Positions 4,563 to 50,743 of a DNA stretch of 52,163 nt are shown here, piece after piece. The notes below the pieces were generated by a model that made no database searches, had not been told where the DNA came from, and worked only from the letters and a program-made list of their open reading frames with translations. Positions within the stretch are counted from its first letter, which is position 1. Every line of letters begins with the position of its first letter. The stretch covers positions 1-52,163 of the forward strand of contig JAISRB010000092.1 of the NCBI GenBank assembly GCA_031273825.1, given 5' to 3'. The translations under genes were made by a program, and so were the position numbers. The stretch is from Clostridiales bacterium. GTDB taxonomy: Bacteria; Bacillota; Clostridia; Christensenellales; JAISNN01.

Positions 4563-4699
4563 GGTCAACCTTTTTGTCTCGGATTTATTCCGTGAGGGTG
4601 AGGTTTGCCCAAAAATATGACGAAATCGTTTTTTGTAAAGGATATCGGTCGCGTCATGTTTAGTTAAACGCGCGTTTGCGCGGAGTACGGTGTTTTTAA

Positions 4700-5188: not shown

Positions 5189-5206
5189 TGGATTTGTTTT
5201 AAGTTC

Positions 5207-5227
5207 AAACGCATTTTCATGCGTTTG
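5207..5227. repeat. 21-bp palindromic hairpin element aaacgcattttcatgcgtttg; a near-identical copy lies at 19099-19119
   Basis: aaacgcat / atgcgttt form an 8-bp stem. The second copy gaacgcgttttcatgcgtttg differs at 2 positions. Both lie just downstream of + strand genes. Confidence 0.7.
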
Positions 5228-5235
5228 ACCGGAGG

Positions 5236-5270
5236 GGGCTTGTCTTAAGGTTGAATTTTAAGACAAGTCC
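5236..5270. terminator. Strong hairpin between convergent genes (4700 gene and spoIIE), possible bidirectional terminator
   Basis: gggcttgtcttaa (5236-5248) pairs with ttaagacaagtcc (5258-5270). No clean U-run follows on either strand. Confidence 0.35.
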
Positions 5271-5274
5271 CGAA

Positions 5275-7599: not shown

Positions 7600-7868
7600 G
7601 GCTGTGCTAGGTGGGGAGCTAGCGGTGCCCTGTACCTGCAAACCGCTACAGCAGGACCGAAGGCCCGTGTCGGCGGTCGTGTGGAAAGTCTGACTTTGAT
7701 AAGGAATGTTGATATCAAGGTCCCATCCAATGTAAATCTGTGAACCATGTCAGGCCCGAAGGGGAGCAGCATTAAGCGGACAATTACATGTGCCATGGGG
7801 AAGCTTTGAAGGAGTCGCCTGTCATTAGTTCCGTTTCGGCATGACTGGTCAAAACGGGATGCACAGTT
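7600..7868 (+). ncRNA. ffs: Signal recognition particle RNA, long Bacillus-type (scRNA, with Alu domain)
   Basis: The 5' end GTGCTAGGTGGGGAGCTAGCGGTGCCCTGTACCTGCAAACCGCT closely matches the B. subtilis scRNA 5' domain. The domain IV motif GTCAGGCCCGAAGGGGAGCAGC is present. ctgtgc (7602-7607) pairs with gcacag (7861-7866). Length is about 269 nt. Confidence 0.9.
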
Positions 7869-7888: not shown

Positions 7889-7922
7889 ACCGGCGGCTTG
7901 CCGTTAAGCCGCCGGTTTTTTT
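7889..7922 (+). terminator. Intrinsic terminator of ffs
   Basis: accggcggctt (7889-7899) pairs with aagccgccggt (7906-7916), followed by a T-run. It overlaps the stop codon of the convergent ABC gene. Confidence 0.8.
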
Positions 7923-10509: not shown

Positions 10510-10515
10510 AATAAG

Positions 10516-13500: not shown

Positions 13501-13713
13501 GCTTGTCAGCCGCCTCCCGTCGACCAAAATCTCTCCGTCGCACGGAACGTCAAAGCCGGCAATGAGGTTTAAGAGAGTAGACTTTCCCGAGCCTGATTTT
13601 CCAAGCACAAAGACGGTTCCCTTGTCGGGGAACGCGATATCGACGCCGTCTAAGGCCTTGACCTCCGCGTCGTCGGTTTTGTATGTCTTACTCAAATTTT
13701 TTATCAGCAACAT
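10516..13713 (-). CDS. Second fused ABC ATPase / MacB-FtsX-type permease with a very large extracytoplasmic domain
   Basis: Walker A GKSGSGKST, LSGGERQR, ILADEPTGKLD and the FtsX motif KQKDIGVMKALGMKAPDIIKIY are present. The start is taken at MLLIKNLSKTY (ATG 13713), because the longer track ORF (to 13794) would run through the promoter. No SD precedes this ATG. Confidence 0.88.
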   Translation of the reverse strand: MLLIKNLSKTYKTDDAEVKALDGVDIAFPDKGTVFVLGKSGSGKSTLLNLIAGFDVPCDGEILVDGRRLTSASDYDDYRNNTIGFIFQEFNLNKSLNAEQNILLSERLKRGGVDSKKAAEALSAVGLSDKAKKKVNKLSGGERQRVAIARALIKKPKLILADEPTGKLDETNGKIVFDILKSLSEKILVVVVSHDRESAEKYADRIIELSDGRVVSDKLKNPRYIAETTTDGDGVYLLRGKRLNQNDLDILNENADKPVILSRETKFAAFDAKKSGSIPSVADGNCAEKRDSAHIIADGKNKAAKKKKNRGLRGKDIFFLAYKNLTSRMIKTLSSIVICVVLFATLGLSTVIVSYDEYQAAAHTFIKNGESDVIITKRDGGQMSGDVIAELKTDYPDGYLELYPLFGFEFPDYLTQSDADGLTGVTGVFEMEGSELAKLGYTLMNFSDVPNIFAYAEQNPSQIDVSLLPDGFPESVLDSPADILAFYTFAGFLSENQDIVEYINANPGLLDDLQNNPDFLEELQNDPDLPERLRNNTEFWDYLRENPEILEYVQSNPEYFNPENLPSAPPAAWFGLFDLFDPSAPLPDNLTDNPEFSGISGIENAQTVGDLLILLKDNYSVVSFQSRFPTTGLPVAEYEGGRRLNEIVVTDFLVYLVMKHLGTAVAPYYDLNIPTEGEELRAFLHSGFEAVLIDCFNKLNSVTNISPLRVVGILDTGYKEKYFKYVNDPSQSIEVEYLNYAFNANNYYARLYAAKGFSKNCYNGKLMTTVFDYSTEASGILAQYSAMGLVGYADGYSPSDALADNEVVMTENAFIHLFGFTFDSNPRVYTVENPIDGMPIGGYKVVGVIKNASGENLFERDFGVILSVKGFAETVGALSKISAIRVSITADEASALFSYMQKNGLQSVSIYSTLLSYVAPTIDNLKAVFIPVAILIALIALTAMPMFLITAITKKQKDIGVMKALGMKAPDIIKIYLVESAATIVSVLILSSLAVDLVCNIANAAVAQGIRFLSQELIKLIVLLYVTELPYIINAVAIIVIGVVSVIYPTLKISRLSPVEAMKKE

Positions 13714-13714
13714 A

Positions 13715-13764
13715 TATTTATTATACACGATAAACGGCGGTTTTGCAAGAGGTAATTTGGATAT
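13715..13764. repeat. Copy 1 of a perfect 50-bp direct repeat (partner at 15413-15462)
   Basis: tatttattatacacgataaacggcggttttgcaagaggtaatttggatat is identical at both sites. The flanking bases differ on both sides. Confidence 0.95.
13720..13748 (-). promoter_or_regulatory. Near-consensus promoter inside repeat copy 1, 6 nt upstream of the ABC ATG (leaderless geometry)
   Basis: On the minus strand: TTGCAA (13748-13743), a 17-nt spacer, TATAAT (13725-13720), then aaatat-ATG (13713). Confidence 0.6.
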
Positions 13765-13772
13765 CCGTTTTT

Positions 13773-15314
13773 TTATTTCGCCTTGACCGCCCAATAGCCG
13801 TCGCGCTTGCCGTTATTTCGTTCAAGCAAGCCTTTTTCTTGAAGTTTGTTCGTCAGCCTCTTTGCGGTTCTTTCTGATTTTTTGATATGCGCGGCAATTT
13901 CCTTTTGAGTCGCCCGCGGATTTTGACGCAGAAACTTTATGACGTTTTCTTCGTCCAAAGTATCATCATCGCCCAAAACACCATTCAAAGTGCCATTCAA
14001 AGTGCCATTATCATCATTCAAAGTGCCATCATCGCCCAAAACGCCGTTCAAAGTGTCATTCAAAGTGCCATCATCATCATTCAAAGTGCCACCATCATTC
14101 AAAGCGTCCTTTGATTGCGCCTTAAACCGCGCCGTATCAAACGAGTAGCTATCGTTGAGCGGTACTATTATCTTAAAAATATCGCCCTCGATAAATTGCG
14201 GCTCCTTGCCCGAATACAGCTTTGTATATTTGTATAGATTGCGCACGCCCGACCCGAGCGTATCGGCGTAGCCTATGTTTCGGAAGAACGCCGCTATTAT
14301 CGGATTCTTTGGGTTTGGGGTAAAGTTGTCGGGCGTAATCGCTCCTATACCCGCGGCGCGGTTGGCGTTCGACACATACATTTTATCCTTTTCAATCACG
14401 AAGTTAGCGATATATGAGCTTGTAAATTCGCGGTGCATAAGCGAATTGACAAGCATTTCGCGGGCTATCGCGCTTCTGAGCGACACTCTCGCGTCGCCGT
14501 CCAAATAAAACTTATCCCACAAATGCTTTGCGGCAAAGCCGATTAAAAGGTCATAGCTCTCTATCAGGTTGGTTTCTACTATAAGTCTGTCGTCGTAGCG
14601 GTCGGCGTTTACCTTGCGCAGCAACGCGTCCGTCAAATAAGTCGGGCAGACGGACTTTATGACGTCGTCCTTGCCGAGCAGCATTACCGCGGCGAGATTG
14701 TAGCCCGTTTTGCCCGTTTCCGCATCTCTGCCCATAAGCCCCGCGCTTATAACAAGTTCATTGTCCGACAAGCCCTTCCACGTGTGTTCAAATTGTCTGT
14801 TTACCGCCATTTGCCGAACGCGGGAAATTAAATCAAACCGCAGGTCGTTATCTTTTATATAAGGAAAAATCTTTTTTTCGGTATAAACGTTCTGTTTGCG
14901 GATATATAATTGTGCGATTTGTCCCGTCGCCGTGACCTTGACGTCGGCGTCGTCCACGCGGTCATAAATGGTTTTTTTGTAGGTGTGAACCTCCGACGAC
15001 GGCGGAATATGAATTTGAACGACGGTTTTGCCCTCATAATCAAAAGCCTCCGGTGCAAGATAAACCGTCGGATTTATTACCTCCTGATTGCCGACCATTT
15101 TTATAATATTTTTTATGATATCCGAAACCGCGTTTTTTGCAACGCCGCAAACCGTGCCGTTGTCCTCAACGCCAAAATAAATATCACCGCCGAAGCGGTT
15201 CAAAAACGAGCATATCGTCTGATATGTGTCGTCGTCAATCTTTCCTCCGCGCTTAAACTCAACCGCTATGTTTTCACCCACGGCAAGCGTCAGCCGAAAC
15301 CTTTTAACGTCCAT
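13773..15314 (-). CDS. AlbA_2 (Schlafen-like) domain protein with an HATPase_c_4-like middle region and a C-terminal winged-helix; often auto-annotated 'RecG-like helicase / transcriptional regulator'
   Basis: The N-terminus ENIAVEFKRG...TICSFLNRFGGDIYFGVEDNGTVCGV fits the AlbA_2 signature as I recall it. The C-terminal wHTH reads NPRATQKEIAAHIKKSERTAKRLTNKLQEKGLLERNNGKRDGYWAV. An internal GTLN/D-rich tandem-repeat linker is present. An AAGGGGA RBS precedes the ATG at 15314. Confidence 0.8.
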   Translation of the reverse strand: MDVKRFRLTLAVGENIAVEFKRGGKIDDDTYQTICSFLNRFGGDIYFGVEDNGTVCGVAKNAVSDIIKNIIKMVGNQEVINPTVYLAPEAFDYEGKTVVQIHIPPSSEVHTYKKTIYDRVDDADVKVTATGQIAQLYIRKQNVYTEKKIFPYIKDNDLRFDLISRVRQMAVNRQFEHTWKGLSDNELVISAGLMGRDAETGKTGYNLAAVMLLGKDDVIKSVCPTYLTDALLRKVNADRYDDRLIVETNLIESYDLLIGFAAKHLWDKFYLDGDARVSLRSAIAREMLVNSLMHREFTSSYIANFVIEKDKMYVSNANRAAGIGAITPDNFTPNPKNPIIAAFFRNIGYADTLGSGVRNLYKYTKLYSGKEPQFIEGDIFKIIVPLNDSYSFDTARFKAQSKDALNDGGTLNDDDGTLNDTLNGVLGDDGTLNDDNGTLNGTLNGVLGDDDTLDEENVIKFLRQNPRATQKEIAAHIKKSERTAKRLTNKLQEKGLLERNNGKRDGYWAVKAK

Positions 15315-25323: not shown

Positions 25324-26310
25324 TCACCGTTCGCCGCCGCATAACCTAAATTGTTTAATCAGCCGTTCCTTTATTTTATCCAAAAAGCCTTGCGGCCCCA
25401 GCACCCTGACGGTCGGGCCGAAGCTCAATATTCTGATAAGCAGCTCCGCTTCGTCGTCTAAGTCGTAGGATATTTGACAGGTATAAACGCCGCGTACTCT
25501 GTCGTATTCGGTCTTTCTGTCAAAGGAGGCGAACTGCAAAAAAAACCGCTCCGGCGCGTTTCTTTCGTTTGTTATCTCGAGCGTAATCGGCGGATTTGCC
25601 GACTGCTCCAAAAACAGCCGGCACAATTCTTCGCGCGATATGCGGCGGTTTAGTCCGGACGGCGCGGCGGATATGACGCGCCCGAGATTCAAGGTTCGCT
25701 TGACGGGCTTTTGAGCCTTTGCGTCGAATACGGCGCACAGCAGTCGGAATTTGTCGTCCAATTCGGAATAGCTGAGCTTGAAGGGGTAATAAGTCCGCTC
25801 CGATACGCCCGTCTTTTCGGCGGCGTAGGCGATTGCGACGGGGTAGCCGCCCTTGCAGGCCTTCAAAATTTCGCGGAAATTCGCGATATAGACCGCGTCG
25901 CCGTAAGGGTCGCCGTCAAGGCGTTTGTCCGCGGAGACAAAGTCGGCCGCGTCGAACGCGGGCGTGGTTTCCTTTAGCGCGCCGCGAAGCCTTGTCAGGC
26001 TTTCGCCGCTCAAAAACAGCCCTATTCGCGGGTCGTTAGTCAGGGCGGCAAGCCACGACAGCTCAAGCCGCGTCAGGGGCCGCTCAAAACCGCCGTCAAA
26101 TTTTGAATAATATAGGTCGCCGCGCCTTTCGAGAAAGCTCCATTCGCCGCCGATTAGCCCGGGCAGCAGATGAAACGCGGTTTCCGAAAAGCCGCGCTCG
26201 GCTATGATGCTCTCGATATCTTTTTTTGATATTCCGTCCCTCGCCGCGTTCAAAACGCGCGAAACGATTCCGAAATAACAGCCGTAAATTTCAGAAAAAA
26301 GCGCGCTCAT
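25324..26310 (-). CDS. WYL-type regulator paralogue B (degenerate WYL core plus WCX-like C-terminal domain)
   Basis: The WYL-like segment is RTYYPFKLSYSELDDKFRLLCAVFD...LNLGRVISA. The C-terminal segment LIRILSFGPTVRVLGPQGFLDKIKERL resembles the WCX extension of WYL regulators. Assigned by motif recollection only. Confidence 0.65.
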   Translation of the reverse strand: MSALFSEIYGCYFGIVSRVLNAARDGISKKDIESIIAERGFSETAFHLLPGLIGGEWSFLERRGDLYYSKFDGGFERPLTRLELSWLAALTNDPRIGLFLSGESLTRLRGALKETTPAFDAADFVSADKRLDGDPYGDAVYIANFREILKACKGGYPVAIAYAAEKTGVSERTYYPFKLSYSELDDKFRLLCAVFDAKAQKPVKRTLNLGRVISAAPSGLNRRISREELCRLFLEQSANPPITLEITNERNAPERFFLQFASFDRKTEYDRVRGVYTCQISYDLDDEAELLIRILSFGPTVRVLGPQGFLDKIKERLIKQFRLCGGER

Positions 26311-27542
26311 TCCTCCGTTCCTCCCGTTTTGTCTATTCCGTACATTTCAAACATGCGGCTAAGGTCGCCGCAAAGCCGCTTTTTGAGGCGGTCGGAGGCC
26401 TCAAAGGATATAATTCTGCCGATAAAGGTTTTGACCCACGGCATCGCCTCGTTCGCGTCAAAGACGGTCCTTGTAAATTTAAAGGTATTCGCCCCGACGC
26501 GCTCCAAAACGCCGCCTCTGCCCTCCTTGTTTATTCTGTTTATGATATAGCCCTCGCGCCCCTCGTCGATATAGAGAGTCATAGAGAAGCCCGTTTGGTT
26601 TCGCGATTCGCCGTCGAACGACACGCCCCAAACCTTGCCGATATTGCGCGAGAGAGCCTTTTGCGTTTCGTCATAGTTTTCGGCGGGGCCGACGGCTTCG
26701 ACGGATTTTACCGTGTCGAGGCGGTATGTAAAAAATCTCCCGGCCGACGGAATATACGCGCACAAATAGCGTCTGCCGCTTGACAGACCGCACAAAATTT
26801 TTGCGGGAACAACCGTGGGTTTTACCGTTTTTCCGCTTTTTGAGCCGACTAACGCTATTTCTATTTTTTCGCGTCCGCGTATAGCCGTCAGGATATCGTA
26901 TAATACCGCGTCCTCGAGCGTCTGCGCTATATAGCTGTGCTTAAAGACAAAGAGGTCGTTTACCGCGTCCGCGTTATCCAAAATATAGTTTCCGATTACG
27001 CCCAAGCTTCCGCCCTGAAAAAATTTGACCGCGTCTAACAGCTCTTTTTCGGGCTTGACGGCGTTTTGGGAAAGGCCGTAGACGTACTTTTTGCCTATTT
27101 TTTCTCTTGTCAGCAGACCTAAGCCGGCGTATTCGTTGCATTTTCCGCGCACGGTTTGCAGGTCAAACGACCTTTGGCTTTTTTGCGCAATTTCCTCGGT
27201 CAGCTCCTCCGCCGATTTGACGGCGGCTCTCAGCGCGTCAAAGATATAAAAGTGCAGCGTTATGTCGTTTGTCGTAAAGCTCTTGCTTTTCCACGCCGAA
27301 AACAGCGGGTTTGCCGGAATAGCTCCGCAGTCCGCCGAGACAAAGGAGACCTTGCCGCCGCCCGAATAAGTCCATTTCATCGCGTCGCCGAGATAGCTTT
27401 CGCAACGCCGCTTTTCGTTGTCGTAGGTACGCGCGGATTTTATGGAAAAATCGTCGCGCGTCTTGAAGCCGTATATATAGAAGTCGCGCATAAAGCTTCT
27501 TATCTTATTAAAATTTTTGATAAGCTCGGAAAATTCCGCCAT
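26307..27542 (-). CDS. WYL-domain transcriptional regulator paralogue A (N-terminal wHTH-like region, WYL, WCX)
   Basis: The WYL core is VVPAKILCGLSSGRRYLCAYIPSAGRFFTYRLDTVKSVE, and the C-terminal segment is EAMPWVKTFIGRIISFEASDRLKKRL. The stop overlaps the start of paralogue B by 4 nt (ATGA). Confidence 0.7.
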   Translation of the reverse strand: MAEFSELIKNFNKIRSFMRDFYIYGFKTRDDFSIKSARTYDNEKRRCESYLGDAMKWTYSGGGKVSFVSADCGAIPANPLFSAWKSKSFTTNDITLHFYIFDALRAAVKSAEELTEEIAQKSQRSFDLQTVRGKCNEYAGLGLLTREKIGKKYVYGLSQNAVKPEKELLDAVKFFQGGSLGVIGNYILDNADAVNDLFVFKHSYIAQTLEDAVLYDILTAIRGREKIEIALVGSKSGKTVKPTVVPAKILCGLSSGRRYLCAYIPSAGRFFTYRLDTVKSVEAVGPAENYDETQKALSRNIGKVWGVSFDGESRNQTGFSMTLYIDEGREGYIINRINKEGRGGVLERVGANTFKFTRTVFDANEAMPWVKTFIGRIISFEASDRLKKRLCGDLSRMFEMYGIDKTGGTEE

Positions 27543-27570
27543 AGATACCGCACCTCTTTTAATTTATGTA

Positions 27571-27599
27571 ATTATAGCATATAAATAAAGGCAAGTCAA
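27571..27599 (-). promoter_or_regulatory. Near-consensus promoter of the WYL operon
   Basis: On the minus strand: TTGACT (27599-27594), a 17-nt spacer, TATAAT (27576-27571), then an AGAGGTG RBS and the ATG at 27542. Confidence 0.65.
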
Positions 27600-27650
27600 A
27601 TTTATGGGGGTTTATCGATTTTTTAGTCTAAAAACGCGTTATTTTTACCG

Positions 27651-27708
27651 TTCGCAAACTTTTTTATACGCAAAATCGGCAAAATCGTGTTTTCGCAAAT
27701 TTTTTTAT
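27651..27708. promoter_or_regulatory. Two 17-bp direct repeats TTCGCAAAyTTTTTTAT (27651-27667, 27692-27708), 41-bp period, in the WYL/rtcB divergent region; candidate operator
   Basis: Read directly, with one mismatch. A gcaaaatcg-gcaaaatcg mini-repeat lies between them. The proximal copy ends 23 bp upstream of the rtcB -10. Confidence 0.4.
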
Positions 27709-27728
27709 TCGATTATTCGCGGCGGCTT

Positions 27729-27737
27729 TGATATAAT
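27729..27737 (+). promoter_or_regulatory. Extended -10 (TGaTATAAT) of the rtcB promoter; weak -35
   Basis: TG 27729-27730, TATAAT 27732-27737, GGAGGG RBS 27746-27751, ATG 27770. Confidence 0.5.
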
Positions 27738-27769
27738 ATCGGCGTAATCAAAAACGGAGGGCAAAGACA

Positions 27770-29002
27770 ATGCTTACGATAGAGAACGAACAAATGAAAT
27801 TTCCGATTAAGGCGTGGTTAAAGGACGCGGGTCAAGCCGACGGGACCTGCTTAGAGCAGGCGGCGCGTCTTGCGGGGCTGCCGTTCTTACATAAATGGGT
27901 CTGCTTAATGCCCGACGCTCACGCGGGAATGGGAATGCCTATCGGCGGCGTAATCGCGACAAAGGGCGTAATTATTCCCAACGCCGTCGGCGTGGACATC
28001 GGCTGCGGAATGGCTTATGCCGGCACGGACGTCAGGGTAGACGAAATAAAGAATATCTCCGTCGGCAACGGAAGCTTTATTCAGGCTCTCGTCGGCAACA
28101 TACTGCGCGACGTTCCCGTCGGCTTTAACCGCCACAAGACAAAGCAGGCCTGCGCGGCCTTAGACAAGGCAAACGCCGAAATGGATAAATACGCAAAAAA
28201 TCCCGGGCTTGCCGAGCAAATCGAGGCCGGATATTATCAGGCCGGGACGCTCGGCGGCGGCAATCACTTCATCGAAATTCAGCAATCCGACGACGGATAT
28301 TTGGGGATAATGATACATTCGGGCAGCCGCAATTTCGGCAAGCAGATATGCGATTATTATCACAAGGCCGCCCGCGCGCTCAACGAAAGGTGGTATGCTC
28401 CCGTTCCCGACGAGTGGCAGCTGGCGTTTTTGCCGACGGACAGCGAGGAGGGGCGGCAATATATCGACTGGATGAATCTCGCCTTAGAATTCGCCTATGA
28501 AAACCGCGCGCTGATGCTAAAAGCCGTAAAGGACATATTTGACCGCATGATGAAAAAATACGCGGACGCCGACTATCGGTATACCGACGAAATCAATTGC
28601 CATCACAATTACGCCGCCATAGAGCGGCACTACGACGCCAACGTGTGGGTTCACCGCAAGGGCGCGACGAGGGCGAGAGCGGGAGAGCGGGCGGTCATTC
28701 CGGGGGCTATGGGCTCGTTTAGCTACGTTGTCGAGGGCTTGGGAAACGCGGAAAGCTTTTGCTCAAGCTCGCACGGCGCGGGCAGACAATATTCGAGAAA
28801 GGCCGCGATGGAAAATTTTTCGACCGAACGGGTCATGCTCGACCTAAAGGAGCAAGGCGTGGTTTTGGGCAAGGCCGACAAGTCGGACGTCGCCGAGGAA
28901 AGCCGCTTTGCGTACAAAAATATCGACGAAGTAATGGACAATCAAAGAGACCTTGTCAAGGCCGTCACGCGTTTAAAAACCGTCGGCGTAGTCAAGGGCT
29001 AA
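27770..29002 (+). CDS. rtcB: RtcB-family RNA 3'-phosphate/5'-OH ligase
   Basis: Metal and GMP-site motifs are present: PDAHAGMGMPIGGV, GGGNHFIE, HSGSRNFG, NCHHNY and SSSHGAGR. Length is 410 aa. Confidence 0.95.
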   Translation: MLTIENEQMKFPIKAWLKDAGQADGTCLEQAARLAGLPFLHKWVCLMPDAHAGMGMPIGGVIATKGVIIPNAVGVDIGCGMAYAGTDVRVDEIKNISVGNGSFIQALVGNILRDVPVGFNRHKTKQACAALDKANAEMDKYAKNPGLAEQIEAGYYQAGTLGGGNHFIEIQQSDDGYLGIMIHSGSRNFGKQICDYYHKAARALNERWYAPVPDEWQLAFLPTDSEEGRQYIDWMNLALEFAYENRALMLKAVKDIFDRMMKKYADADYRYTDEINCHHNYAAIERHYDANVWVHRKGATRARAGERAVIPGAMGSFSYVVEGLGNAESFCSSSHGAGRQYSRKAAMENFSTERVMLDLKEQGVVLGKADKSDVAEESRFAYKNIDEVMDNQRDLVKAVTRLKTVGVVKG

Positions 29003-29159
29003 AAAAGGTATTAAGGGTCAACGCACCCCAAAAATACATTCGTTCTTATCCTATGCGGACGGTTTTCGACAAAAAGAGCCGTCGCGGCGCCTTTCGCCTT
29101 TGGCGTTTTAGGTGTGCCGGATAATAGCGGATTTTAGCCGTTAGCTTACATCTTAACGG

Positions 29160-29252
29160 CTCAAACAGAGACAGTATCGCGGGTTCAAATCCCGCACCGG
29201 GCAACCGGTTAGCTCAGAGGTAACAGCATGTCTAAATGAATTTCTTTTTGAG
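29160..29252 (+). ncRNA. Circularly permuted tRNA-like RNA element (YrlA-like tRNA mimic); core 29169-29233, true transcript ends unknown
   Basis: AGACA(29169-73)/UGUCU(29229-33) forms the anticodon-stem equivalent. Then come a 5-nt variable loop GUAUC, the T-arm GCGGG-UUCAAAU-CCCGC, an acceptor-like stem ACCGG-GCAA-CCGGU capped by a GNRA loop, UA, a 16-nt D-arm GCUC-AGAGGUAA-CAGC with GG, and A26. Every segment length matches canonical tRNA. An outer helix CUCAAA(29160-65)/UUUGAG(29247-52) is also possible. Confidence 0.75.
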
Positions 29253-29515
29253 AAAGAGACTGTCCTACGGATTTTAGGCAAAGACCTTCGGCGGCGCGCC
29301 GAAACCTTCGGCGCAAGCGCGGCGGCTTTTTTGCCGGCGGCAAGGGGATACCGCTTGTCGCGCCTTATACCCATAACGCTTTTGTTATATCGGGAGCGTA
29401 AGCCGGATAAGACCGCGCCAAGCTAAACCGTCGCCCCGCAAAAAAACCGCGAGGGTCTTTGACCGAAGGTCCAACTATCAAACGCTAAAAATCAAAAAAA
29501 AGGAGAACAAGAAAA

Positions 29516-30634
29516 ATGAAAATTATTATCAAGCAAAACGAGCGCGGCTTTTTATTTAAAAACGGCGCGTACCGCAGGCTGTTGCAGCCCGGCAAAAACG
29601 TAATATATCCATTCTTAGGCGAGACCTGCGTATTCGCGCCCTTAGACAAGCCGATCGACGTGCCGGGCGCCGACGCGGAAATTTTAATGGCGGACAAGGA
29701 CTTCGCTCAAAACGTCGTCAAAATCGACGTACCCGACGGCTGTGTGGCCGTTCGCTTTGAGGAGGGCAGAGTCGCGGGCGCGCACGACGCCGGCAGATAT
29801 TTTTACTTCAACTACTATCAAAACGTCACATACAGGCTTTTTGACGTGTCAAAGGCGGAAATCGAGGGCTTGACCCCGGAGCAAATCAACCGCCTGCCGC
29901 GCGAGCTTTATATCAAGATAATCGTCGCCGAGGGCGAGACGGGGCTGTTGTTTTTGGACGGCAAATTTAGCCGCGCCCTAAACGCGGGCGCGTATTATTT
30001 CTGGAACACAAAGACCGCCGTGACCTGCGAAAAGGTCGATTTGAGAAGTCAGGAGTTAGATATCGGAGGGCAGGAGATTTTGACCGCCGACAAGGTGTCG
30101 CTGCGCGTAAACTTCGTCGCAAGCTACCGCGTCACCGACGCGGTCAAAATGATAAGCGAGGTCAAAAACTACAAGGAGAGGATTTATACGGTGACTCAGC
30201 TTGCCCTGCGCGAGTATATCGGCAAGTTTCGTTTTGACGAGCTTTTGGAGCAAAAGGACAACATCGCGTCAAGCGTGTTGTCGCGGCTTCAAGCCCAAAA
30301 CGGGGAGCTTTGCGTCGAGTTTACAAGCGCGGGCTTAAAGGACGTAATTTTGCCGGGCGAAATCCGCGAGATTATGAATACCGTTTTGGTCGCGGAGAAA
30401 AACGCGCAGGCCAACGTCATCGCCCGCCGCGAGGAGGTCGCCTCGACGAGAAGCCTTCTCAACACGGCAAGGCTCTTAGACGAGAACGCCACGCTTTATA
30501 AGCTAAAGGAGCTGGAGTACTTAGAGAAAATCTGCGACAAGGTCGGCTCTATTTCGGTCGGCGGCGGCAACCTCTTATCGGAGCTTCAAAAAATCGTCGG
30601 CATAACGCCGGCAACAAAACAAAAAGCAAACTAA
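29516..30634 (+). CDS. SPFH/Band-7 (stomatin/slipin-like) domain protein
   Basis: The Band-7 core reads EILTADKVSLRVNFVASYRVTDAVK...AQANVIARREEVASTRSLLNTARLL. An AAGGAG RBS is present. I see no N-terminal TM helix and no NfeD partner gene. Confidence 0.8.
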   Translation: MKIIIKQNERGFLFKNGAYRRLLQPGKNVIYPFLGETCVFAPLDKPIDVPGADAEILMADKDFAQNVVKIDVPDGCVAVRFEEGRVAGAHDAGRYFYFNYYQNVTYRLFDVSKAEIEGLTPEQINRLPRELYIKIIVAEGETGLLFLDGKFSRALNAGAYYFWNTKTAVTCEKVDLRSQELDIGGQEILTADKVSLRVNFVASYRVTDAVKMISEVKNYKERIYTVTQLALREYIGKFRFDELLEQKDNIASSVLSRLQAQNGELCVEFTSAGLKDVILPGEIREIMNTVLVAEKNAQANVIARREEVASTRSLLNTARLLDENATLYKLKELEYLEKICDKVGSISVGGGNLLSELQKIVGITPATKQKAN

Positions 30635-30638
30635 AACA

Positions 30639-30680
30639 AGCCTTGCGCGGTATAAAAAACGCGCAAGGCTCATTTTTTTT
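30639..30680 (+). terminator. Strong intrinsic terminator after the SPFH gene
   Basis: An 11-bp perfect stem agccttgcgcg / cgcgcaaggct is followed by T8. Confidence 0.85.
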
Positions 30681-30937: not shown

Positions 30938-31285
30938 ATGATATTATATCGTCCGGTAGGGCAAAAGGAATTGGACTTGATAGAAAAAAGCCGATATAAG
31001 GAGTTTCCGCCGAGGCTTGAGGGGCAGCCTATTTTTTACCCGGTCGTGAATAAGCAATACGCGCGGCAAATAGCAAGCGAATGGAACGTTAAAGACAAGC
31101 TTTCGGGTTATATCGGCTATGTTGTGGAATTTGAAGTTGACGACGGATATTTGAAACAATACGATATTAAAACGGTCGGGGCGGGCGGGCATAAAGAATA
31201 TTGGATACCCGCCGAAAGGCTGGCGGAGTTTAACGGTCATATAATCGGCCGGATAAGGGTGCTTGAAAAATTTGAAAGCGCCTAA
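30938..31285 (+). CDS. Conserved hypothetical 115-aa protein (YRPVGxKELDLI...FPPRL...QPIFYPV...EYWIPAE family)
   Basis: The sequence type is familiar to me from many bacterial genomes as an uncharacterised family, but I cannot name the family. An AGAGGA RBS is present. Confidence 0.7.
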   Translation: MILYRPVGQKELDLIEKSRYKEFPPRLEGQPIFYPVVNKQYARQIASEWNVKDKLSGYIGYVVEFEVDDGYLKQYDIKTVGAGGHKEYWIPAERLAEFNGHIIGRIRVLEKFESA

Positions 31286-31310
31286 GGAACGAAAACCGAG
31301 GGTTTTTGCA

Positions 31311-31628
31311 ATGTTATTTAAGATGGCAAACGGTATGTGCAGGCTAAAAAAGAAAAACAAGCAAGAGCCGGTTTTTATTCAAAAGCAAGAAACTCCGCCC
31401 GAGCCGCAGTTTAGAGAGGAGACCGTCGCCGTCGTGTGGGGAGAGGACAAGACGCGGTATTGCGAGGTGTTTTTTAAACACGGTTGTTATACATATTACG
31501 GCGAGCAACTTTTTTATGATGACGACGAGGGATATTATTGGTCGCCTAAGTTCAATATGTCCGTAAGCTTTTTTGACACCCTCGACAAGGCAAAGCAAGC
31601 GGCGGAAGCTTTTTTGCGGGGGGAATAA
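31311..31628 (+). CDS. Hypothetical small protein
   Basis: ORF in an operon context. The ATG at 31311 has GAGGG upstream, whereas the track's TTG at 31263 overlaps the previous gene. The stop overlaps the next ATG (TAATG). Confidence 0.5.
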   Translation: MLFKMANGMCRLKKKNKQEPVFIQKQETPPEPQFREETVAVVWGEDKTRYCEVFFKHGCYTYYGEQLFYDDDEGYYWSPKFNMSVSFFDTLDKAKQAAEAFLRGE

Positions 31629-32272
31629 TGAAAACCGTTAAGCTTGAAACAAACGAATATGTTTTGATTAACGAAATCGATATTTCCGAGGATATCGGTT
31701 TGTGCTTATCCGAAATAAAAGAGATAGACGGCGTTTGCGAGAGAAAGCTTGAAAAGGCCGTAAAGCACATTCCGACGGTTGTTCAATTTGTTGTCGGCTT
31801 AGGTGCTTTGACGGTATTGACCGCCGTTTTGATTGTTATAGCCTTTATAAACAAGGAATTATTTTGGTTGTTTTATATCGGCTTATTCGGGGCGGCGTGG
31901 ATTCCTTTGATTGCTTTGGTATTCCGTTGGGAATTCAAAAAGAAAACGACTTTTTTGAAGACCGCCGATATCTATCCGGCGCAGATAACGGGAATGCGCC
32001 GAGAGGAAGAGGCCGTCGATTCGGAGGACGTGATAATGCACGATTATAGATATGCAATCGATTATAATTTGTTTAAGGGCGATGAGATTATCAAGGGGAC
32101 GTTCAAAATGAGAGCCGCGAGCCTTTTCCGCAATTCCGTCGGTTTGGAGGAAGGTCTATATAATTATTACTGCACAAAAAGATATATGTTGATGCTGTTT
32201 AACCCAAAAAACAAAAGAGTCTATCCCGTGCGTTTATATAAAAAACAAGGAATGCCGCATGAAATATTATAA
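31628..32272 (+). CDS. Hypothetical membrane protein (2 TM helices)
   Basis: A GGGGGGA RBS is present. The hydrophobic segments are VVQFVVGLGALTVLTAVLIVIAFI and LFWLFYIGLFGAAWIPLIALVF. Confidence 0.6.
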   Translation: MKTVKLETNEYVLINEIDISEDIGLCLSEIKEIDGVCERKLEKAVKHIPTVVQFVVGLGALTVLTAVLIVIAFINKELFWLFYIGLFGAAWIPLIALVFRWEFKKKTTFLKTADIYPAQITGMRREEEAVDSEDVIMHDYRYAIDYNLFKGDEIIKGTFKMRAASLFRNSVGLEEGLYNYYCTKRYMLMLFNPKNKRVYPVRLYKKQGMPHEIL

Positions 32273-33059
32273 ATTGAGCTTTAGAGCAAAAAAAGACGAT
32301 TTTGACCGTGACGCCGACGTCTATTTAGTAGAGGAGTATTTGGGCTGTCTTTATAAAAACGGACAAATAGTAGATTATGACGGCATGTTTGTCAAGGACG
32401 GTTTTGTATATTGCCACGCGACCTTGCCCGAGGCGGACGCGCTGTCAAGGACAAACGACAACAAATATGTCGCGGAAGGGCGTGATAAGGTCGGGCAAAT
32501 ATTTGAAATCGGCTTAGAGGAGCCGCTCGGCGACGATTGGCACTTGGACTTGGAGGCTTGCCGCTGTGAGTCGCCGAGCCGTTATATGCTCGATTGCGGC
32601 CCTTGCCATGACGACAGCCCGATAACCTGTTGCGATTGCATGTCTCCGATTCCGCTCTATAGACTGCCAAAAATATTCGGCGAGGAGGAGTTTTATACGC
32701 TTCGCGAATTTGAAAGAGAATGCAAGGCAATCGGGGAGCTGTGGCTGTCGGGTCTGAATGATAAATTTACCTTTAAGCAGAGAAACGACCCGTCCTCGCA
32801 ATTGGCCAAAAAAGGCCGCAAAATCTGCAAGGCCTTTGAAAAAGCGACGGGAAAGCCGTTCTATTATTTTTTATCGTTTGACTATTGGTCTTTTTTTTAC
32901 GACAAAAAAGACAACTGTCAAGAACACCCCGCCCCTAAGGAATGTCCGTCCTGCGGCAAAAATTGGGAGGTCAAAAAAGGGGAGTCGGTTGTCGGATATA
33001 GGTGCGACGCTTGCCGGCTACTCTCCCAAAAAAACCGAGATTTGCAAGCGGAGGAGTGA
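32259..33059 (+). CDS. Cys-rich Zn-ribbon protein (DUF2310-like by recollection)
   Basis: The Cys clusters are [27 protein letters not shown] and CPSCGKNW...YRCDACRL. The N-terminal ...NGQIVDYDG...[10 protein letters not shown] resembles the DUF2310 pattern. It overlaps the previous gene by 14 nt. Confidence 0.6.
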
Positions 33060-33162: not shown

Positions 33163-33238
33163 TGGTGGAGATGAGGGGGATCGAACCCCTGACCTATGCG
33201 TTGCGAACGCATCGCTCTACCAACTGAGCCACACCCCC
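33163..33238 (-). tRNA. tRNA-Ala (anticodon CGC)
   Basis: The reverse complement is GGGGGTG-TG-GCTCAGTTGGTAGAGC-G-ATGCG-TTCGCAA-CGCAT-AGGTC-AGGGGTTCGATCCCCT-CATCTCC-ACCA. It contains the G3:U70 alanine identity pair. Confidence 0.9.
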
Positions 33239-33642: not shown

Positions 33643-33718
<76 letters not shown>

Positions 33719-33741
33719 TTTTTTTATTCTTTTATTTTTTT

Positions 33742-33818
33742 GGCGGCGTAGCTTAGCAGGTTAGAGCAGTCGGTTCATACCCGGCAGGTCGTCGGTTCGA
33801 GTCTGACCGCCGCTACCA
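33742..33818 (+). tRNA. Elongator tRNA-Met (CAU)
   Basis: The cloverleaf is GGCGGCG/CGCCGCT with anticodon loop TTCATAC. The overall sequence resembles B. subtilis elongator Met rather than Ile2 (by recollection). Confidence 0.8.
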
Positions 33819-33821
33819 CAC

Positions 33822-33896
33822 GGCCCTATGGTCAAGTGGTCAAGACATCGCCCTTTCACGGCGGTAACGGGAGTTCGAACCTCCCTAGGGTCACCA
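33822..33896 (+). tRNA. tRNA-Glu (UUC)
   Basis: Acceptor stem GGCCCTA/TAGGGTC, anticodon loop CTTTCAC, T-arm GGGAG-TTCGAAC-CTCCC, then CCA. Confidence 0.9.
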
Positions 33897-34016
33897 CTTC
33901 TTTGAAACCGTGTTTTATGTCAAAAGAACGCCTTAGCGGCGTTTCCTCATAAAGCACCTCTTTTTTTGTACGGTACGATAATTCACGGCGCTTGCCTTGA
34001 TTTATAATACCATTCC

Positions 34017-34092
34017 GGGAGCATAGCTCAGTTGGTAGAGCATCTGCCTTACAAGCAGAGGGTCACAGGTTCGAGCCCTGTTGTTCCCACCA
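34017..34092 (+). tRNA. tRNA-Val (UAC)
   Basis: Acceptor stem GGGAGCA/TGTTCCC, anticodon loop CTTACAA, T-arm ACAGG-TTCGAGC-CCTGT, then CCA. Confidence 0.9.
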
Positions 34093-50332: not shown

Positions 50333-50743
50333 TTATCCGAGTAGATTTTTAATCCGCTCCAACGTTGCCGCTTTGTTATTTTTCTTAAGCTCGCACTCCC
50401 ATATACGGAGAACGCGCCAACCGCGAGTTTCGAACCTTGCCACAACTTCAATGTCGCGGCGCATATTGCGCTCGCGTTTCGCCGCCCAGTAATCAGAGTT
50501 AGCGGTGGGGCGAGTGTTGCGGCAGTCGTGACCATGCCAGAAACACCCATCTGCGAACACAGCTACGCGCAATTTGGGAAACACAAAATCGGGTTTGCCC
50601 TTGACGGGATAATTGCGTCGCCACCCCGTCAAACCTGCCGCTTTGAATAGCTCAATCAGTCGCAATTCAGTAGACTTGTTGCCTTTTGAGCGTACTTTGC
50701 TCATAACTACGGAGCGCATCTCCGGAACGAATACGTCAGCCAT
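50333..50743 (-). CDS. vsr: Very-short-patch repair endonuclease
   Basis: The motifs MSKVRSKGNKSTELRL and FADGCFWHGH are present. The start is taken at MADVF (ATG 50743), which overlaps the dcm stop by 8 nt. Confidence 0.9.
   Translation of the reverse strand: MADVFVPEMRSVVMSKVRSKGNKSTELRLIELFKAAGLTGWRRNYPVKGKPDFVFPKLRVAVFADGCFWHGHDCRNTRPTANSDYWAAKRERNMRRDIEVVARFETRGWRVLRIWECELKKNNKAATLERIKNLLG

Follow-up and report, generated by a model that had tools for sequence, protein, structure and literature searches.

In a 52,163 nt contig from a Clostridiales bacterium (JAISRB010000092.1), here termed the window, the gene for the RNA ligase RtcB is separated by a non-coding gap from a gene for an SPFH/Band-7 protein. 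A pair of genes for WYL-domain regulators diverges from these genes. This raises the question of whether the gap encodes an RNA that acts with the SPFH protein in RNA repair. The original prediction, made from the sequence of the window, envisaged a small tRNA-like RNA and the SPFH protein as a scaffold for RtcB. All of the features it described are present, at or within 1–2 nt of where they were first placed (Table 1); the RNA, however, differs greatly in size.

Table 1. Features of the rtcB–RNA–SPFH locus (window positions)
Feature	Position	Strand	Basis or detail
WYLb, 328 aa, second gene of pair, WYL + WCX domains	25324..26310	-	PADLOC, Pfam
WYLa, 411 aa, first gene of pair	26307..27542	-	Pfam WYL, PADLOC WYL
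Divergent control region between WYLa and rtcB	27543-27769		227 bp
Candidate WYL-gene promoter, sigma-70-type	27571..27599	-	TTGACT, 17-nt spacer, TATAAT; consensus scan
Operator-like motif copy 1, TTCGCAAACTTTTTTATAC	27651..27669	+	exact core match 27652-27666
Operator-like motif copy 2, TTCGCAAATTTTTTTATTCGAT	27692..27714	+	core match 27693-27707, 1 mismatch
Extended -10 element of operon, TGATATAAT	27729..27737	+	read from sequence
RtcB RNA ligase, 410 aa	27770..29002	+	Pfam PF01139
Non-coding gap rtcB–SPFH	29003-29515		513 nt
Large structured non-coding RNA, ~460 nt, filling the gap	~29013..29470	+	profile, covariation
RNA 5′ domain	29047..29123	+	closing helix 29047-51 / 29119-23
5′-domain hairpins inside closing helix	29055-29085, 29087-29115	+	
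Circularly permuted tRNA-like module	29170..29232	+	covariance model R1, 74 bits, E ~1e-23
Module: anticodon-stem-like strand; T arm	29170-73; 29179-95		
Module: acceptor-like hairpin; D arm	29196-29209; 29212-27		
Module: returning strand	29229-32		
RNA 3′ domain	29270..29470	+	helices 9-16 of 16 covarying helices
3′-domain long-range helices	29270-89 / 29451-70; 29322-42 / 29432-50	+	
3′-domain inner hairpins	29291-29320; 29345-52; 29365-71 / 29405-11; 29379-96	+	
Soluble stomatin-like SPFH ('slipin') protein, 372 aa	29516..30634	+	Pfam Band_7 E 3.8e-36
SPFH protein regions	residues 1-130; 132-280; 281-342		beta-rich N-terminal; SPFH domain; long helix
Intrinsic terminator ending operon	30639..30680	+	sequence + fold; stem 30639-30649 / 30660-30670

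The structured RNA of the gap

The whole gap is one structured RNA of ~460 nt, of which the tRNA-like fold makes up a single module. An element of 65–130 nt had been expected; the actual RNA is approximately seven times larger. Its nhmmer profile matches the + strand only, directly 5′ of SPFH genes, and no Rfam family matches it. Among 22 homologues, 94.4% of the base-pair cells hold standard pairs, compared with 38–47% in register-shifted (slid) controls, and both-side (compensatory) changes occur in 66 of 90 pairs, a value reached by none of 500 shuffles. RNAalifold, applied to alignment A2 (22 sequences), predicts 86 pairs, of which 62 are compensatory. The alignment has 201 G-U cells and 31 A-C cells, which fixes the strand of the RNA, and the single-sequence folding z-score is -6.2.

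The 5′ domain, where the secure core of the RNA begins, has the conserved sequences CCUAUGC, GCGGUGCC and GGUAUGCCGG. Its helices, numbers 2–4 of the RNA, are 96–99% paired, with both-side changes in 12 of 19 pairs; every one of the 19 is a standard pair in the window. The first hairpin, at 29013–29031, may be promoter or spacer DNA instead of a part of the RNA. In the 3′ domain, the hairpin at 29345–52 has the invariant sequence GGGAUACC, and double changes are found at 10 pairs of the 12-bp helix and at 12 of the 15-bp helix. Two helices are imperfect in the window, those at 29291–29320 (three of six standard pairs) and 29365–29411 (four of seven). The RNA lacks a terminator of its own, and its last helix stops only 45 nt before the SPFH start codon, two features that a cis-acting leader would share.

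The tRNA-shaped fold, first placed at 29169–29233, is located by covariance model R1 at 29170–29232. Across 80 species loci the model has 63 matches, of which a single one is not on the + strand 5′ of SPFH. Paired cells amount to 97.4%, against 38–48% when slid, and the covariation score is 0.75 against less than 0.09. Thus, the predicted fold is far from a chance product and is supported by covariation; in dozens of species the module and the entire gap are conserved and covary. Equivalents of the tRNA tertiary nucleotides U8, A14, G19, A21, T54, Psi55, C56 and A58 are invariant. The acceptor-like hairpin carries a GCAA loop, and the D stem in the window has one C-C mismatch. All tRNA elbow contacts are kept, but there is no anticodon loop and no free CCA end. 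YrlA matches the module weakly (23.4 bits), with the same order of arms; the module has the permuted topology described for YrlA (bioRxiv 10.1101/312249). Relatives carry two to four modules in tandem. An L-shaped tRNA mimic of this type would provide a docking surface or a decoy for factors that recognize tRNA and, because its acceptor end is closed and the anticodon loop is missing, would be immune to anticodon nucleases.

Encoded proteins and the control region

RtcB joins 3′-phosphate or 2′,3′-cyclic phosphate to 5′-OH. The assignment of rtcB is borne out by a match to the full Pfam profile (positions 1–426 of 426, E 7.6e-115) and by the motifs GG.H, HHN (residue 278) and HGAGR (residue 335). 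TROVE (Ro), RtcA, archease, a sigma-54 activator such as RtcR, and RlaP are absent from the 31 window open reading frames of at least 120 aa; the first four had already been thought missing.

The SPFH protein is likewise confirmed as an SPFH/Band-7 family member by Pfam and by matches to stomatin in PDB (1e-20 to 2e-18). With its AF2 model (pLDDT 80), the top Foldseek matches are human stomatin 16-mers (1.8e-15), together with HflK/C, prohibitin, erlin and QmcA. The protein has no hydrophobic segment (Kyte-Doolittle maximum 1.05). SPFH relatives form rings of 16–26 subunits.

The two minus-strand genes, which overlap by 4 nt, are of the WYL type as proposed. Pfam WYL matches WYLa above the gathering score (E 9.6e-6) and matches 15 of 15 homologues, and the PADLOC WYL model PDLC01652 matches both WYLb (E 6.3e-10, residues 138–317) and WYLa (6.7e-8). 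Homologues of WYLb show Pfam WCX in seven of 15 and WYL in three of 15. The best solved-structure match of WYLa is to mycobacterial PafBC chains (7p5x/9fnd, E 0.006), and WYLb weakly matches the PafBC structure 6sj9. The two proteins resemble each other weakly (hhalign E 0.004, probability 8%), and profile search found no DNA-binding domain in either.

In the control region, the putative WYL-gene promoter has 11 of 12 consensus matches and a TG preceding the -10 element, and is a consensus match only. In the opposite direction, no recognizable -35 hexamer lies upstream of the extended -10 element. The -35 region is instead spanned by copy 2 of an operator-like motif, which starts 40 nt before the -10 hexamer. 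The motif, TTCGCAAACTTTTTTA, is conserved 40 nt upstream of the -10 element of the predicted rtcB/RNA promoter, and this spacing is fixed across type A loci; TGnTAnAAT elements in relatives are at the equivalent position and at equal distance from it. Almost every type A and type C locus has the motif on the + strand, either 5′ of rtcB or immediately 5′ of the RNA. Loci without rtcB have it directly upstream of the RNA, and type B loci have a variant between WYLb and the RNA. Thus, a conserved operator-like motif covers the -35 region of the putative operon promoter. WYLa and WYLb, proposed to form a heterodimer, would bind this motif, switching the operon on or off, and would respond to a ligand derived from nucleic acid.

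No terminator-like site was found on the + strand between rtcB and SPFH. The terminator foreseen after the SPFH gene is present: an 11-bp stem with a 10-nt loop is followed by eight T residues (-22.3 kcal/mol, z-score -5.0). The sequence is best explained by a single operon running from the promoter at ~27729–27737 to this terminator and comprising RtcB, the RNA and SPFH.

Linkage across species and exchange of regulators

Many Clostridia carry this gene set, and one third of E. coli genomes have it in another form. Of the 50 species loci whose full context was available, 47 have a T-loop within 750 nt upstream of SPFH and the other three have it at ~950 nt; pairing of the RNA with the SPFH gene is therefore near-invariant. 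The WYL pair is present in 39 of these loci (WYLb adjoining WYLa), RtcB in 35 and both in 30. Accordingly, the RNA and SPFH constitute the invariant core, with the WYL pair and RtcB as frequent partners. The expected rtcB/RNA/SPFH linkage is strongly conserved, but RtcB is dispensable to the RNA–SPFH pair: 15 loci (30%) have no RtcB within 7 kb, and a dedicated link to RtcB repair is thus not obligatory. Stand-alone RNA–SPFH pairs are found among housekeeping genes. Genes of the conflict type (Fic, S_4TM, zeta toxin) adjoin some loci. No relatives were found in phage records or IMG/VR contigs.

In Burkholderia the order is rtcR, sigma-54 promoter, tRNA-like RNA, slipin, RtcB, RlaP, and in Citrobacter it is rtcR, sigma-54 promoter, RNA with a T arm, slipin, RlaP. 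Subdoligranulum has WYLa, WYLb, RNA, SPFH, RtcB, RlaP, the same order as Burkholderia apart from the regulator. In the proteobacterial versions, RtcR and a sigma-54 promoter thus take the place of the WYL pair. As these occupy the position of the motif, the proposal that the WYL pair has taken over the role of RtcR gains direct comparative support. The clostridial RNA profile has no sequence match in the proteobacterial upstream regions, which leaves homology of the full-length RNA between phyla unproven; only the T arm and tRNA-like pieces are in common.

Possible functions and known systems

The reading favoured, with modest confidence, is that the operon provides RtcB, the RNA and SPFH for an RNA-protein particle in RNA repair, under WYL control. 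The SPFH protein would bind the ~460-nt RNA. During translational stress or attack by nucleases, the resulting particle and RtcB, joined in other genomes by the nucleotidyltransferase RlaP, would handle tRNA or rRNA that has been cleaved. Alternatively, the RNA might act in cis as the 5′ leader of the SPFH mRNA and not in trans as a stable partner of the protein. As a large sensor or riboregulator, it would control transcription read-through, stability or translation of the SPFH gene, for example by binding a tRNA-recognizing protein or a metabolite. This is considered unlikely. The RNA is always on the same strand directly 5′ of SPFH, its conserved part typically stopping 22–50 nt before the start codon with no terminator between; type B and type C loci have a regulated promoter directly before it, making it the 5′ end of the SPFH transcript. 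However, neither an alternative terminator/antiterminator fold nor sequestering of the ribosome-binding site was found in the RNA, and its final helix closes the structure over a long range and does not form an expression platform. The distance to SPFH reaches 118–373 nt in some loci, with a small open reading frame between in locus L002, and the type A RNA sits inside the operon downstream of rtcB. In addition, its size, 16 covarying helices and YrlA-type tRNA mimic resemble RNAs of RNA-protein particles, and yrlA too is co-transcribed, inside the rsr-rtcBA operon (bioRxiv 10.1101/312249).

Still less probable is that the RNA is mainly a decoy or sensor substrate in RNA conflicts, independent of a stable SPFH complex. 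Its tRNA-shaped module or modules would serve to titrate nucleases or modification enzymes that target tRNA, or to report on them, and the WYL pair could sense fragments cleaved from the RNA, or host tRNA halves, as its ligand. Retained elbow contacts without an anticodon loop or free CCA end fit this role, tandem modules are expected of a multivalent decoy, and the conflict-type neighbours are in keeping with it. A competitive-inhibitor role has been proposed for the YrlA tRNA-like domain (Hughes et al., PMC7790460), and WYL domains bind ligands and regulate defence systems (PMC4012209). Nevertheless, a decoy leaves unexplained the near-obligatory adjacency to SPFH and ~400 nt of conserved structure beyond the module, and the absence from phage records and IMG/VR contigs also speaks against it. 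A further reading, in which the gap contains remnants of decayed tRNA genes or the scar of an integration, without function of its own, is practically refuted by covariation of the module and the whole RNA. The T arms have exactly the sequence of real tRNAs and ARAGORN occasionally calls odd tRNAs in relatives, but compensatory covariation is strong over all 460 nt among species with SPFH proteins of just 55–85% identity, well over 100 loci keep the position and the strand, and G-U pairs are invariant.

In function, the RNA–SPFH particle would correspond to Ro60 and its Y RNA. In the Anabaena trcR mutant, rtcB and a slipin gene, compared here by the name 'slipin', are both derepressed, and both genes are induced by translation inhibitors (PMC10272220). 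Burroughs and Aravind (2016), correctly cited in the original prediction, foresaw a 'band 7-associated tRNA' beside RtcB and a Band-7 protein, as restated in the relevant passage of Wang et al. (bioRxiv 10.1101/312249). The same passage notes that YrlA-type RNAs occasionally adjoin Band-7 proteins and describes the Band-7/tRNA-like RNA/RtcB association as predicted, without validation. The system in the window matches this apparently untested prediction (b7a-tRNA).

The RNA between rtcB and the SPFH gene

The gap between rtcB and the SPFH gene is 513 nt long, and a whole-gap alignment of relatives is conserved from just past the end of rtcB to a point ∼45 nt short of the SPFH start codon. Relatives came from 80 loci of species-level genomes and from 80 loci of metagenomes, the latter often of termite and mammalian gut. 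A profile of the gap, searched with nhmmer, matched ∼100 of the 160 loci, solely on the plus strand directly upstream of SPFH. The match is full length in ∼25 loci, and the window has a single match.

A sequence-only MAFFT alignment of 22 homologues (alignment A2) was used to assess covariation. RNAalifold gives 86 pairs, 62 with compensatory changes, and the 4-bp closing stem of the tRNA-like module brings the set to 90. Standard pairs occupy 94.4% of cells, versus 38–47% in six register-shifted controls, and 66 of the 90 pairs change on both sides, versus 21–30 in the controls. For covariation, the score of 0.48 compares with ∼0.1 in the controls and is reached by none of 500 shuffles. There are 201 G-U cells versus 31 A-C cells, and thus the transcribed strand is the plus strand. 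As read from these alignments, the gap is one multi-domain covarying RNA of ∼460 nt, of which a predicted tRNA mimic makes up ∼14%. No family in Rfam 15 matches any portion of this RNA. The original prediction had a tRNA-shaped fold within a non-coding gap. The fold is present, but the gap is not otherwise plain, since ∼460 nt covary as one RNA.

Features of the module and its RNA, in window positions
Feature	Position	Strand	Basis or remark
WYLb	25324-26310	-	ORF listing and profile searches
WYLa	26307-27542	-	ORF listing and profile searches
Divergent intergenic region	between WYLa and rtcB		227 bp
Operator-like motif, copy 1	27651-27669	+	motif match
Operator-like motif, copy 2	27692-27714	+	motif match
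-10 element TGATATAAT	27729-27737	+	read from sequence
rtcB	27770-29002	+	Pfam RtcB PF01139, E 7.6e-115
Weak first hairpin	29013-29031	+	A2 consensus
5' domain	29047-29123	+	A2 consensus
Variable hairpin	29138-29160	+	A2 consensus
tRNA-like module	29170-29232	+	covariance model R1, 74 bits
Variable linker	between module and 3' domain	+	close relatives with second orphan T arm
3' domain	29270-29470	+	closed by 12- and 15-bp long-range helices
SPFH gene	29516-30634	+	Pfam Band_7 PF01145, E 3.8e-36
Terminator	30639-30649 / 30660-30670	+	11-bp stem and run of eight T

The first hairpin is 89% paired across the alignment and has three of its five pairs in the window. At loci where the regulated promoter immediately precedes the RNA, the transcript seemingly starts beyond this hairpin, which may be the spacer of an internal promoter and not part of the RNA. 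In relatives, the segment corresponding to 29013-29041 resembles a weak sigma-70 promoter (TTATTA, 16-nt spacer, TATAAT). The RNA may have its own promoter besides read-through from rtcB. A tertiary pairing of CUAUG in the 5' domain with CAUAG in the 3' domain, noticed by eye, was set aside because its covariation is inconsistent.

ARAGORN, and Rfam at gathering thresholds (RF00005 included), have no hit in the gap. When Rfam is searched permissively, a single match is meaningful, that to the YrlA family (RF02553), at 29150-29257, with 23.4 bits versus a gathering threshold of 69 (E 0.086). The order in the matched alignment is T arm, acceptor-like hairpin, D arm. The match is below threshold, and the RNA was not filed under YrlA. 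A covariance model of the module, R1, was built from 18 homologous modules. The elements run in the order 4-nt strand, variable loop, T arm, closed acceptor-like hairpin, equivalents of U8 and A9, D arm and returning strand. A GCAA loop shuts the acceptor end, and an anticodon loop is missing. The equivalents of U8, A14, G19, A21, T54, Psi55, C56 and A58 are invariant among homologues (alignment A5). By its T arm, D arm, acceptor-like stem and conserved elbow and core nucleotides, the module is classed as tRNA-like, a predicted mimic of the L-shape. It is not taken for a true tRNA, being unseen by ARAGORN and RF00005, closed at the acceptor end and devoid of an anticodon loop.

Within the 80 species loci, R1 has 63 matches at E < 0.001; with one exception, these lie on the SPFH strand, 270–700 nt upstream of SPFH. 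In the alignment of these matches, which had been fitted to R1, 97.4% of cells are paired versus 38–48% with slid partners, and the covariation score is 0.75 versus <0.09. The tRNA-shaped fold originally placed at 29169-29233 is thereby located almost where it was predicted, with helices that covary in this window's relatives, and the model finds it in other genomes. A single-sequence minimum-free-energy fold, with the D-arm region paired downstream, is overruled by the comparative data.

The number of modules varies. Two to four tandem permuted modules lie upstream of SPFH in L008 (6330-6520), L054 (6258-6442) and L010 (6554-6749), and also in L016 and L019; the window has one. The clade L083–L097 has an additional orphan T arm (GAGGUUCGAAUCCUC) in the linker. 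At L081 (3320-3659), an extension of ∼340 nt with another T arm (GCGGGTTCGAATCCCGT) separates the conserved RNA from SPFH.

Proteins of the module and their linkage to the RNA

The rtcB product matches the Pfam RtcB profile over positions 1–426 of 426, with 385 bits versus a cut-off of 27, and the assignment as RtcB is secure. Its motifs are HGAGR at residue 335, HHN at 278 and GGNH at 163; HGAGR presumably holds the catalytic histidine, and the remaining His/Cys motifs presumably bind metal.

The neighbouring protein belongs to the SPFH/Band-7 family, as proposed, both by its Pfam Band_7 match and by similarity to stomatin in the PDB (1.2e-20), and it falls in the large clade of slipins, the stomatin-like SPFH proteins. 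In ring-forming stomatin, HflK/C and prohibitin, a long coiled-coil helix comes after the SPFH domain. The AF2 model (pLDDT 80) has a beta-rich N-terminal region (residues 1–130), an SPFH domain (132–280) and a long helix (281–342). Its top Foldseek matches are human stomatin 16-mers (1.8e-15), HflK/C, prohibitin, erlin and QmcA, all formers of rings or cages. Stomatin, HflK/C and QmcA typically have an N-terminal membrane anchor, either a hydrophobic hairpin or a transmembrane helix. No hydrophobic anchor is found here, the maximum 19-residue Kyte-Doolittle score being 1.05, and therefore the protein is probably soluble, which is atypical for the family. Modelled alone (pLDDT 86), the N-terminal region has no PDB structural match at E < 0.001; its opening strands are similar to the beginning of an SPFH domain. 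Matches of the full model to the major vault protein, MVP, are weaker (1e-10 to 4e-8) and extend over the SPFH domain and helix. Membership in the MVP/vault family was rejected: the N-terminal region alone aligns to MVP repeats at E 0.2 (probability 0.23), and there is no Pfam Vault match.

In the window ORF listing, the two minus-strand genes have 4 nt in common. The Pfam WYL profile picks up WYLa together with 15 of 15 WYLa homologues, but only 3 of 15 WYLb homologues; the PADLOC WYL model PDLC01652 matches both proteins (WYLb 6.3e-10, WYLa 6.7e-8), which establishes the WYL identity first proposed for them. WCX is matched in 7 of the 15 WYLb homologues. The nearest solved structures in profile searches are PafBC chains, and these matches are weak (E 0.006 for WYLa and 0.046 for WYLb). 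A single-sequence search against solved structures gave no matches, where profile searches and PADLOC models succeeded. No HTH family rises above threshold in profile searches of the two proteins, and a PaaX-like HTH is seen in 2 of 15 WYLa homologues. NCBIfam has no informative name for either protein. WYLa and WYLb occur in 55 of 80 loci, invariably together and in that order.

TROVE/Ro, RtcA, archease, a sigma-54 activator of the RtcR type and RlaP are absent among all 31 window ORFs of at least 120 aa; the reading of the locus as Ro-less, and as lacking RtcA, archease and RtcR, thus stands.

The surroundings are those of ordinary chromosome, with ArgRS, LeuRS, FtsY, SMC, SRP RNA and tRNA genes. 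The SRP RNA is of the large, Bacillota type (7602-7866, plus strand, 172 bits). The tRNA genes are tRNA-Ser(GCT) at 220-311 (minus), tRNA-Ala(CGC) at 33163-33238 (minus) and a cluster of tRNA-Met, tRNA-Met, tRNA-Glu and tRNA-Val at 33643-34092 (plus); tRNAs are found ∼2.5 kb downstream of the module. Past the terminator, 30938-33059 holds a gene for a DUF2310 Zn-ribbon protein and three small ORFs without family (115, 121 and 214 aa). L002 has a homologue of the 121-aa ORF between RNA and SPFH (611-886); the genes of this segment are otherwise not conserved beside the module. Elsewhere, a protein with Schlafen/AlbA_2, HATPase_c_4 and winged HTH domains (13773-15314, minus) adjoins a pair of very large proteins in which ABC-ATPase and FtsX permease are fused (7921-13794), and a Vsr very-short-patch repair endonuclease lies beside a C-5 cytosine DNA methylase (50333-51929, minus).

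Across genomes, three arrangements are seen. In type A, that of the window, WYLb and WYLa are divergent from rtcB, which is followed by RNA and SPFH. Type B has WYLa, WYLb, RNA and SPFH, then a distant RtcB (28–31% identical) and in some loci RlaP. In type C the WYL pair is divergent from RNA and SPFH, and RtcB is not nearby. Type B gaps carry the core motifs GCGGUGC, GUAUGCC, the T arm and GGAUACCG, which places the type B RNA in the same RNA family.

Linkage was counted in the 50 species loci with full flanks. In 47 of them a T-loop lies no more than 750 nt upstream of SPFH, and in the other three it lies at ∼950 nt. The WYL pair occurs in 39 loci and RtcB in 35; 30 loci have both and six have neither. 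Linkage of rtcB, RNA and SPFH is therefore kept in relatives, as the original prediction had it. Stand-alone RNA–SPFH pairs adjoin housekeeping genes, for example downstream of cinA-recA. Since the T-loop is near-universal upstream of SPFH, stand-alone pairs exist, and RtcB and WYL genes vary, RNA and SPFH are the invariant core, with RtcB and the WYL pair as frequent yet optional neighbours. Many Clostridia are carriers, among them cultured members of the human gut flora from [Clostridium] symbiosum, C. asparagiforme, Enterocloster, Eisenbergiella and Robinsoniella. Strains in culture that have the module include Anaerocolumna xylanovorans DSM 12503, [Clostridium] symbiosum ATCC 14940, C. asparagiforme DSM 15981 and Robinsoniella peoriensis.

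At L015 (4038-8089) the RNA–SPFH pair is immediately downstream of cinA-recA, and at L161 (4858-12326) S_4TM and Fic genes flank the module; these neighbours suggest links to DNA damage or conflict systems. An origin from mobile elements was considered and dropped, SPFH relatives amounting to one partial match in INPHARED phages and none in IMG/VR contigs.

Promoters, regulators and proteobacterial counterparts

A sigma-70 promoter close to consensus precedes the WYL genes. On the other side of the divergent region, essentially all type A loci have the motif TTCGCAAACTTTTTTAAATGA upstream of rtcB, 40 nt before a TGnTAnAAT -10 element, and the -35 hexamer is missing from these promoters. In loci without rtcB the motif is immediately before the RNA, and type B loci have a variant (GTTCGCAGCTTTTTTTCCGTGA then GGTAAAAT) between WYLb and RNA. 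A terminator scan found none between rtcB and SPFH. Together with the placement of the motif across locus types, this indicates a predicted transcription unit of motif-promoter, [rtcB], RNA, SPFH, [RtcB, RlaP], where brackets mark optional genes. The WYL pair may bind the motif, as suggested by their co-occurrence and by analogy to PafBC-type promoters.

Full-length slipin homologues, with 31–37% identity that includes the N-terminal region, are found in Burkholderia, Photobacterium, Citrobacter and Escherichia coli. In C. freundii, rtcR is divergent from a sigma-54 promoter (TGGCACGCTTCTGGCA), which is followed by ∼290 nt with a T arm, slipin and RlaP (PF10127). Burkholderia cenocepacia has divergent rtcR, a sigma-54 promoter, a gap of ∼500 nt, slipin, RtcB and RlaP. 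In this gap (locus L165) ARAGORN reports a 'tRNA-???' of canonical order with a 4-nt anticodon loop at 5657-5729, and an extra T arm precedes it (the pair lies within 5608-5729). The canonical-order tRNA mimic is presumably the published b7a-tRNA, the band 7-associated tRNA. Subdoligranulum, of type B, has the Burkholderia gene order with WYLa–WYLb in the place of RtcR. This supports the early suggestion that a WYL pair has taken the RtcR place, and the exchange is read from gene order as a non-orthologous displacement of the regulator.

A 1657-bp query spanning slipin and the gap before it has matches in 1629 of 5426 complete E. coli genomes. The E. coli island lies between yjbD and lysC (L164, strain WAT, 3001-6416; L162). 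Its 529-nt gap contains a T arm as well as a sigma-54 promoter (TGGCACGCTTCTCGCA) and precedes the genes for slipin, an RlaP nucleotidyltransferase and a zeta toxin. The gap carries no annotation and no Rfam match; nor is an RNA annotated at the Clostridial and other proteobacterial loci. The proteobacterial upstream regions escape the Clostridial RNA profile, and R1 gives only marginal T-arm matches in them.

Proposed function and relation to known systems

RtcB is conserved from bacteria to humans. To our knowledge, the substrates and cofactors of bacterial RtcB are largely unknown, and the Ro–Y RNA partnership is the sole RNA-protein accessory of the rtc operon that has been studied. The explanation we moderately favour is that an SPFH oligomer and the large RNA would form an RNA-protein particle, a functional analogue of Ro–Y RNA. 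The particle would cooperate with RtcB and RlaP on damaged tRNA or rRNA; its switch would be WYLa/WYLb in Clostridia and RtcR in Proteobacteria. A more far-reaching version, which we hold only tentatively, is that a new class of large RNA and a soluble stomatin-like protein build a multi-subunit ring or cage, the counterpart of Ro–Y RNA and of the vault. Its tRNA-shaped modules would be a platform or bait for RtcB and RlaP when the translation apparatus is under attack, with WYL and RtcR as interchangeable sensors.

Other explanations of the RNA rank lower. It is unlikely to be a cis-acting leader of the SPFH mRNA: the consensus structure and the terminator scan show no terminator/antiterminator and no helix that sequesters the ribosome binding site, as a leader or riboswitch might have, although absence from a prediction is weak evidence. 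That the RNA acts free of the protein, as a tRNA decoy or sensor, seems somewhat less likely again. Decayed tRNA remnants are hardly conceivable, this explanation being effectively refuted by the covariation.

If an RNA-SPFH particle is indeed formed, the locus would represent a second, genetically tighter RNA-protein pairing for rtc, consisting of SPFH and a large RNA with a tRNA mimic. We know of few structured RNAs of >400 nt with this much covariation. Such large covarying RNAs have historically proved to be ribozymes or cores of RNA-protein machines. SPFH proteins are generally seen as membrane scaffolds, and a soluble member with a candidate RNA ligand would be unusual in the family. With the RNA boundaries and fold, a candidate operator and tractable hosts defined, a ten-year-old prediction becomes directly testable.

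That prediction is from Burroughs and Aravind (2016, Nucleic Acids Res), who, as related in bioRxiv 10.1101/312249, proposed that Band-7 proteins and b7a-tRNA occur next to RtcB. The same account states that YrlA occasionally adjoins Band-7 proteins and that the Band-7/b7a-tRNA system is experimentally unvalidated. A search for later experimental work on RtcB with SPFH/Band-7, b7a-tRNA, or RtcB with WYL brought up no relevant work other than that cited here. An independent experimental hint comes from Anabaena, where a trcR mutant shows 77-fold derepression of rtcB and 42-fold derepression of a slipin gene, possibly an orthologue, and both genes are induced by translation inhibitors (PMC10272220). 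As far as the 2016 system is described there, the window shares with it a Band-7 gene, a tRNA-like RNA in the adjacent gap and the RtcB link, and the L165 canonical-order element beside slipin, RtcB and RlaP fits the description. In contrast to b7a-tRNA, which in the quoted wording 'strongly resembles an authentic tRNA' and so has canonical order, the window module is permuted and missed by tRNA finders. It also differs from the system so described in being one module of a ∼460-nt covarying RNA, and in having as putative regulator a WYL pair with its own operator motif and not RtcR.

Several other systems bear comparison. YrlA is a Y RNA that acts with Rsr/Ro60, encoded in the rsr-yrlBA-rtcBA operon of Salmonella; a crystal structure (6cu1) is available, and TruB and DusA modify the RNA. 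The window module resembles it in keeping tRNA tertiary nucleotides, in sharing an operon with RtcB, and in its order of anticodon-stem strand, T stem-loop, closed acceptor hairpin, D stem-loop and returning strand (bioRxiv 10.1101/312249). Unlike YrlA, the module scores far below the family threshold and is embedded in a far larger RNA; no rsr (TROVE) gene is found among the 31 window ORFs, and the partner is SPFH and not a TROVE ring. There is also no Ro-binding stem in the window, the outer stem columns of the Rfam alignment being mismatched.

PafBC is a WYL-domain heterodimeric activator of the mycobacterial DNA-damage response, and PafBC-dependent promoters have a motif in place of -35, upstream of an (extended) -10. 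Similarly, the window has two adjacent, translationally coupled WYL(+WCX) genes whose best structure matches are PafBC chains, and a putative motif replaces -35 upstream of an extended -10. The differences are the weakness of those matches, no HTH by profile search, an unrelated motif sequence, and an RNA-repair operon as the presumed target. RtcR, a CARF and sigma-54 activator, controls rtcBA. It has the equal divergent position beside the homologous RNA–slipin(–RtcB)–RlaP module in Citrobacter and Burkholderia, but differs from the WYL pair in protein family, in promoter (sigma-54 versus sigma-70-like with the WYL-associated motif) and presumably in ligand.

The eukaryotic vault combines MVP, whose shoulder has the SPFH fold, with vault RNA and the TROVE protein TEP1. 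The window likewise links, at the gene level, a small-to-medium non-coding RNA to a protein that has the SPFH fold and a long cap-like helix. The N-terminal 130 residues of this protein, searched alone, do not match MVP repeats, the RNA is unrelated to vault RNA, and a closed cage is at most hypothetical here. OLE, ROOL, GOLLD and raiA are large structured bacterial non-coding RNAs of unknown function. The RNA described here shares with them a length of >400 nt, many covarying helices, a wide occurrence in Bacillota and an association with tRNA-like sequence, and is set apart by having no Rfam sequence or structure match, a fixed SPFH gene partner and a defined regulatory context.

As a class, then, the system is the one already predicted, to judge from the descriptions of the 2016 work that are available. 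The 2016 paper may in part contain what follows, but these features appear to go beyond those descriptions: the ∼460-nt RNA in which the tRNA mimic takes up ∼14%; a permuted Clostridial versus a canonical Burkholderia form; the WYL pair, its operator-like motif and the exchange with RtcR; RNA–SPFH, and not RtcB, as the core; and the spread of the system among E. coli isolates.
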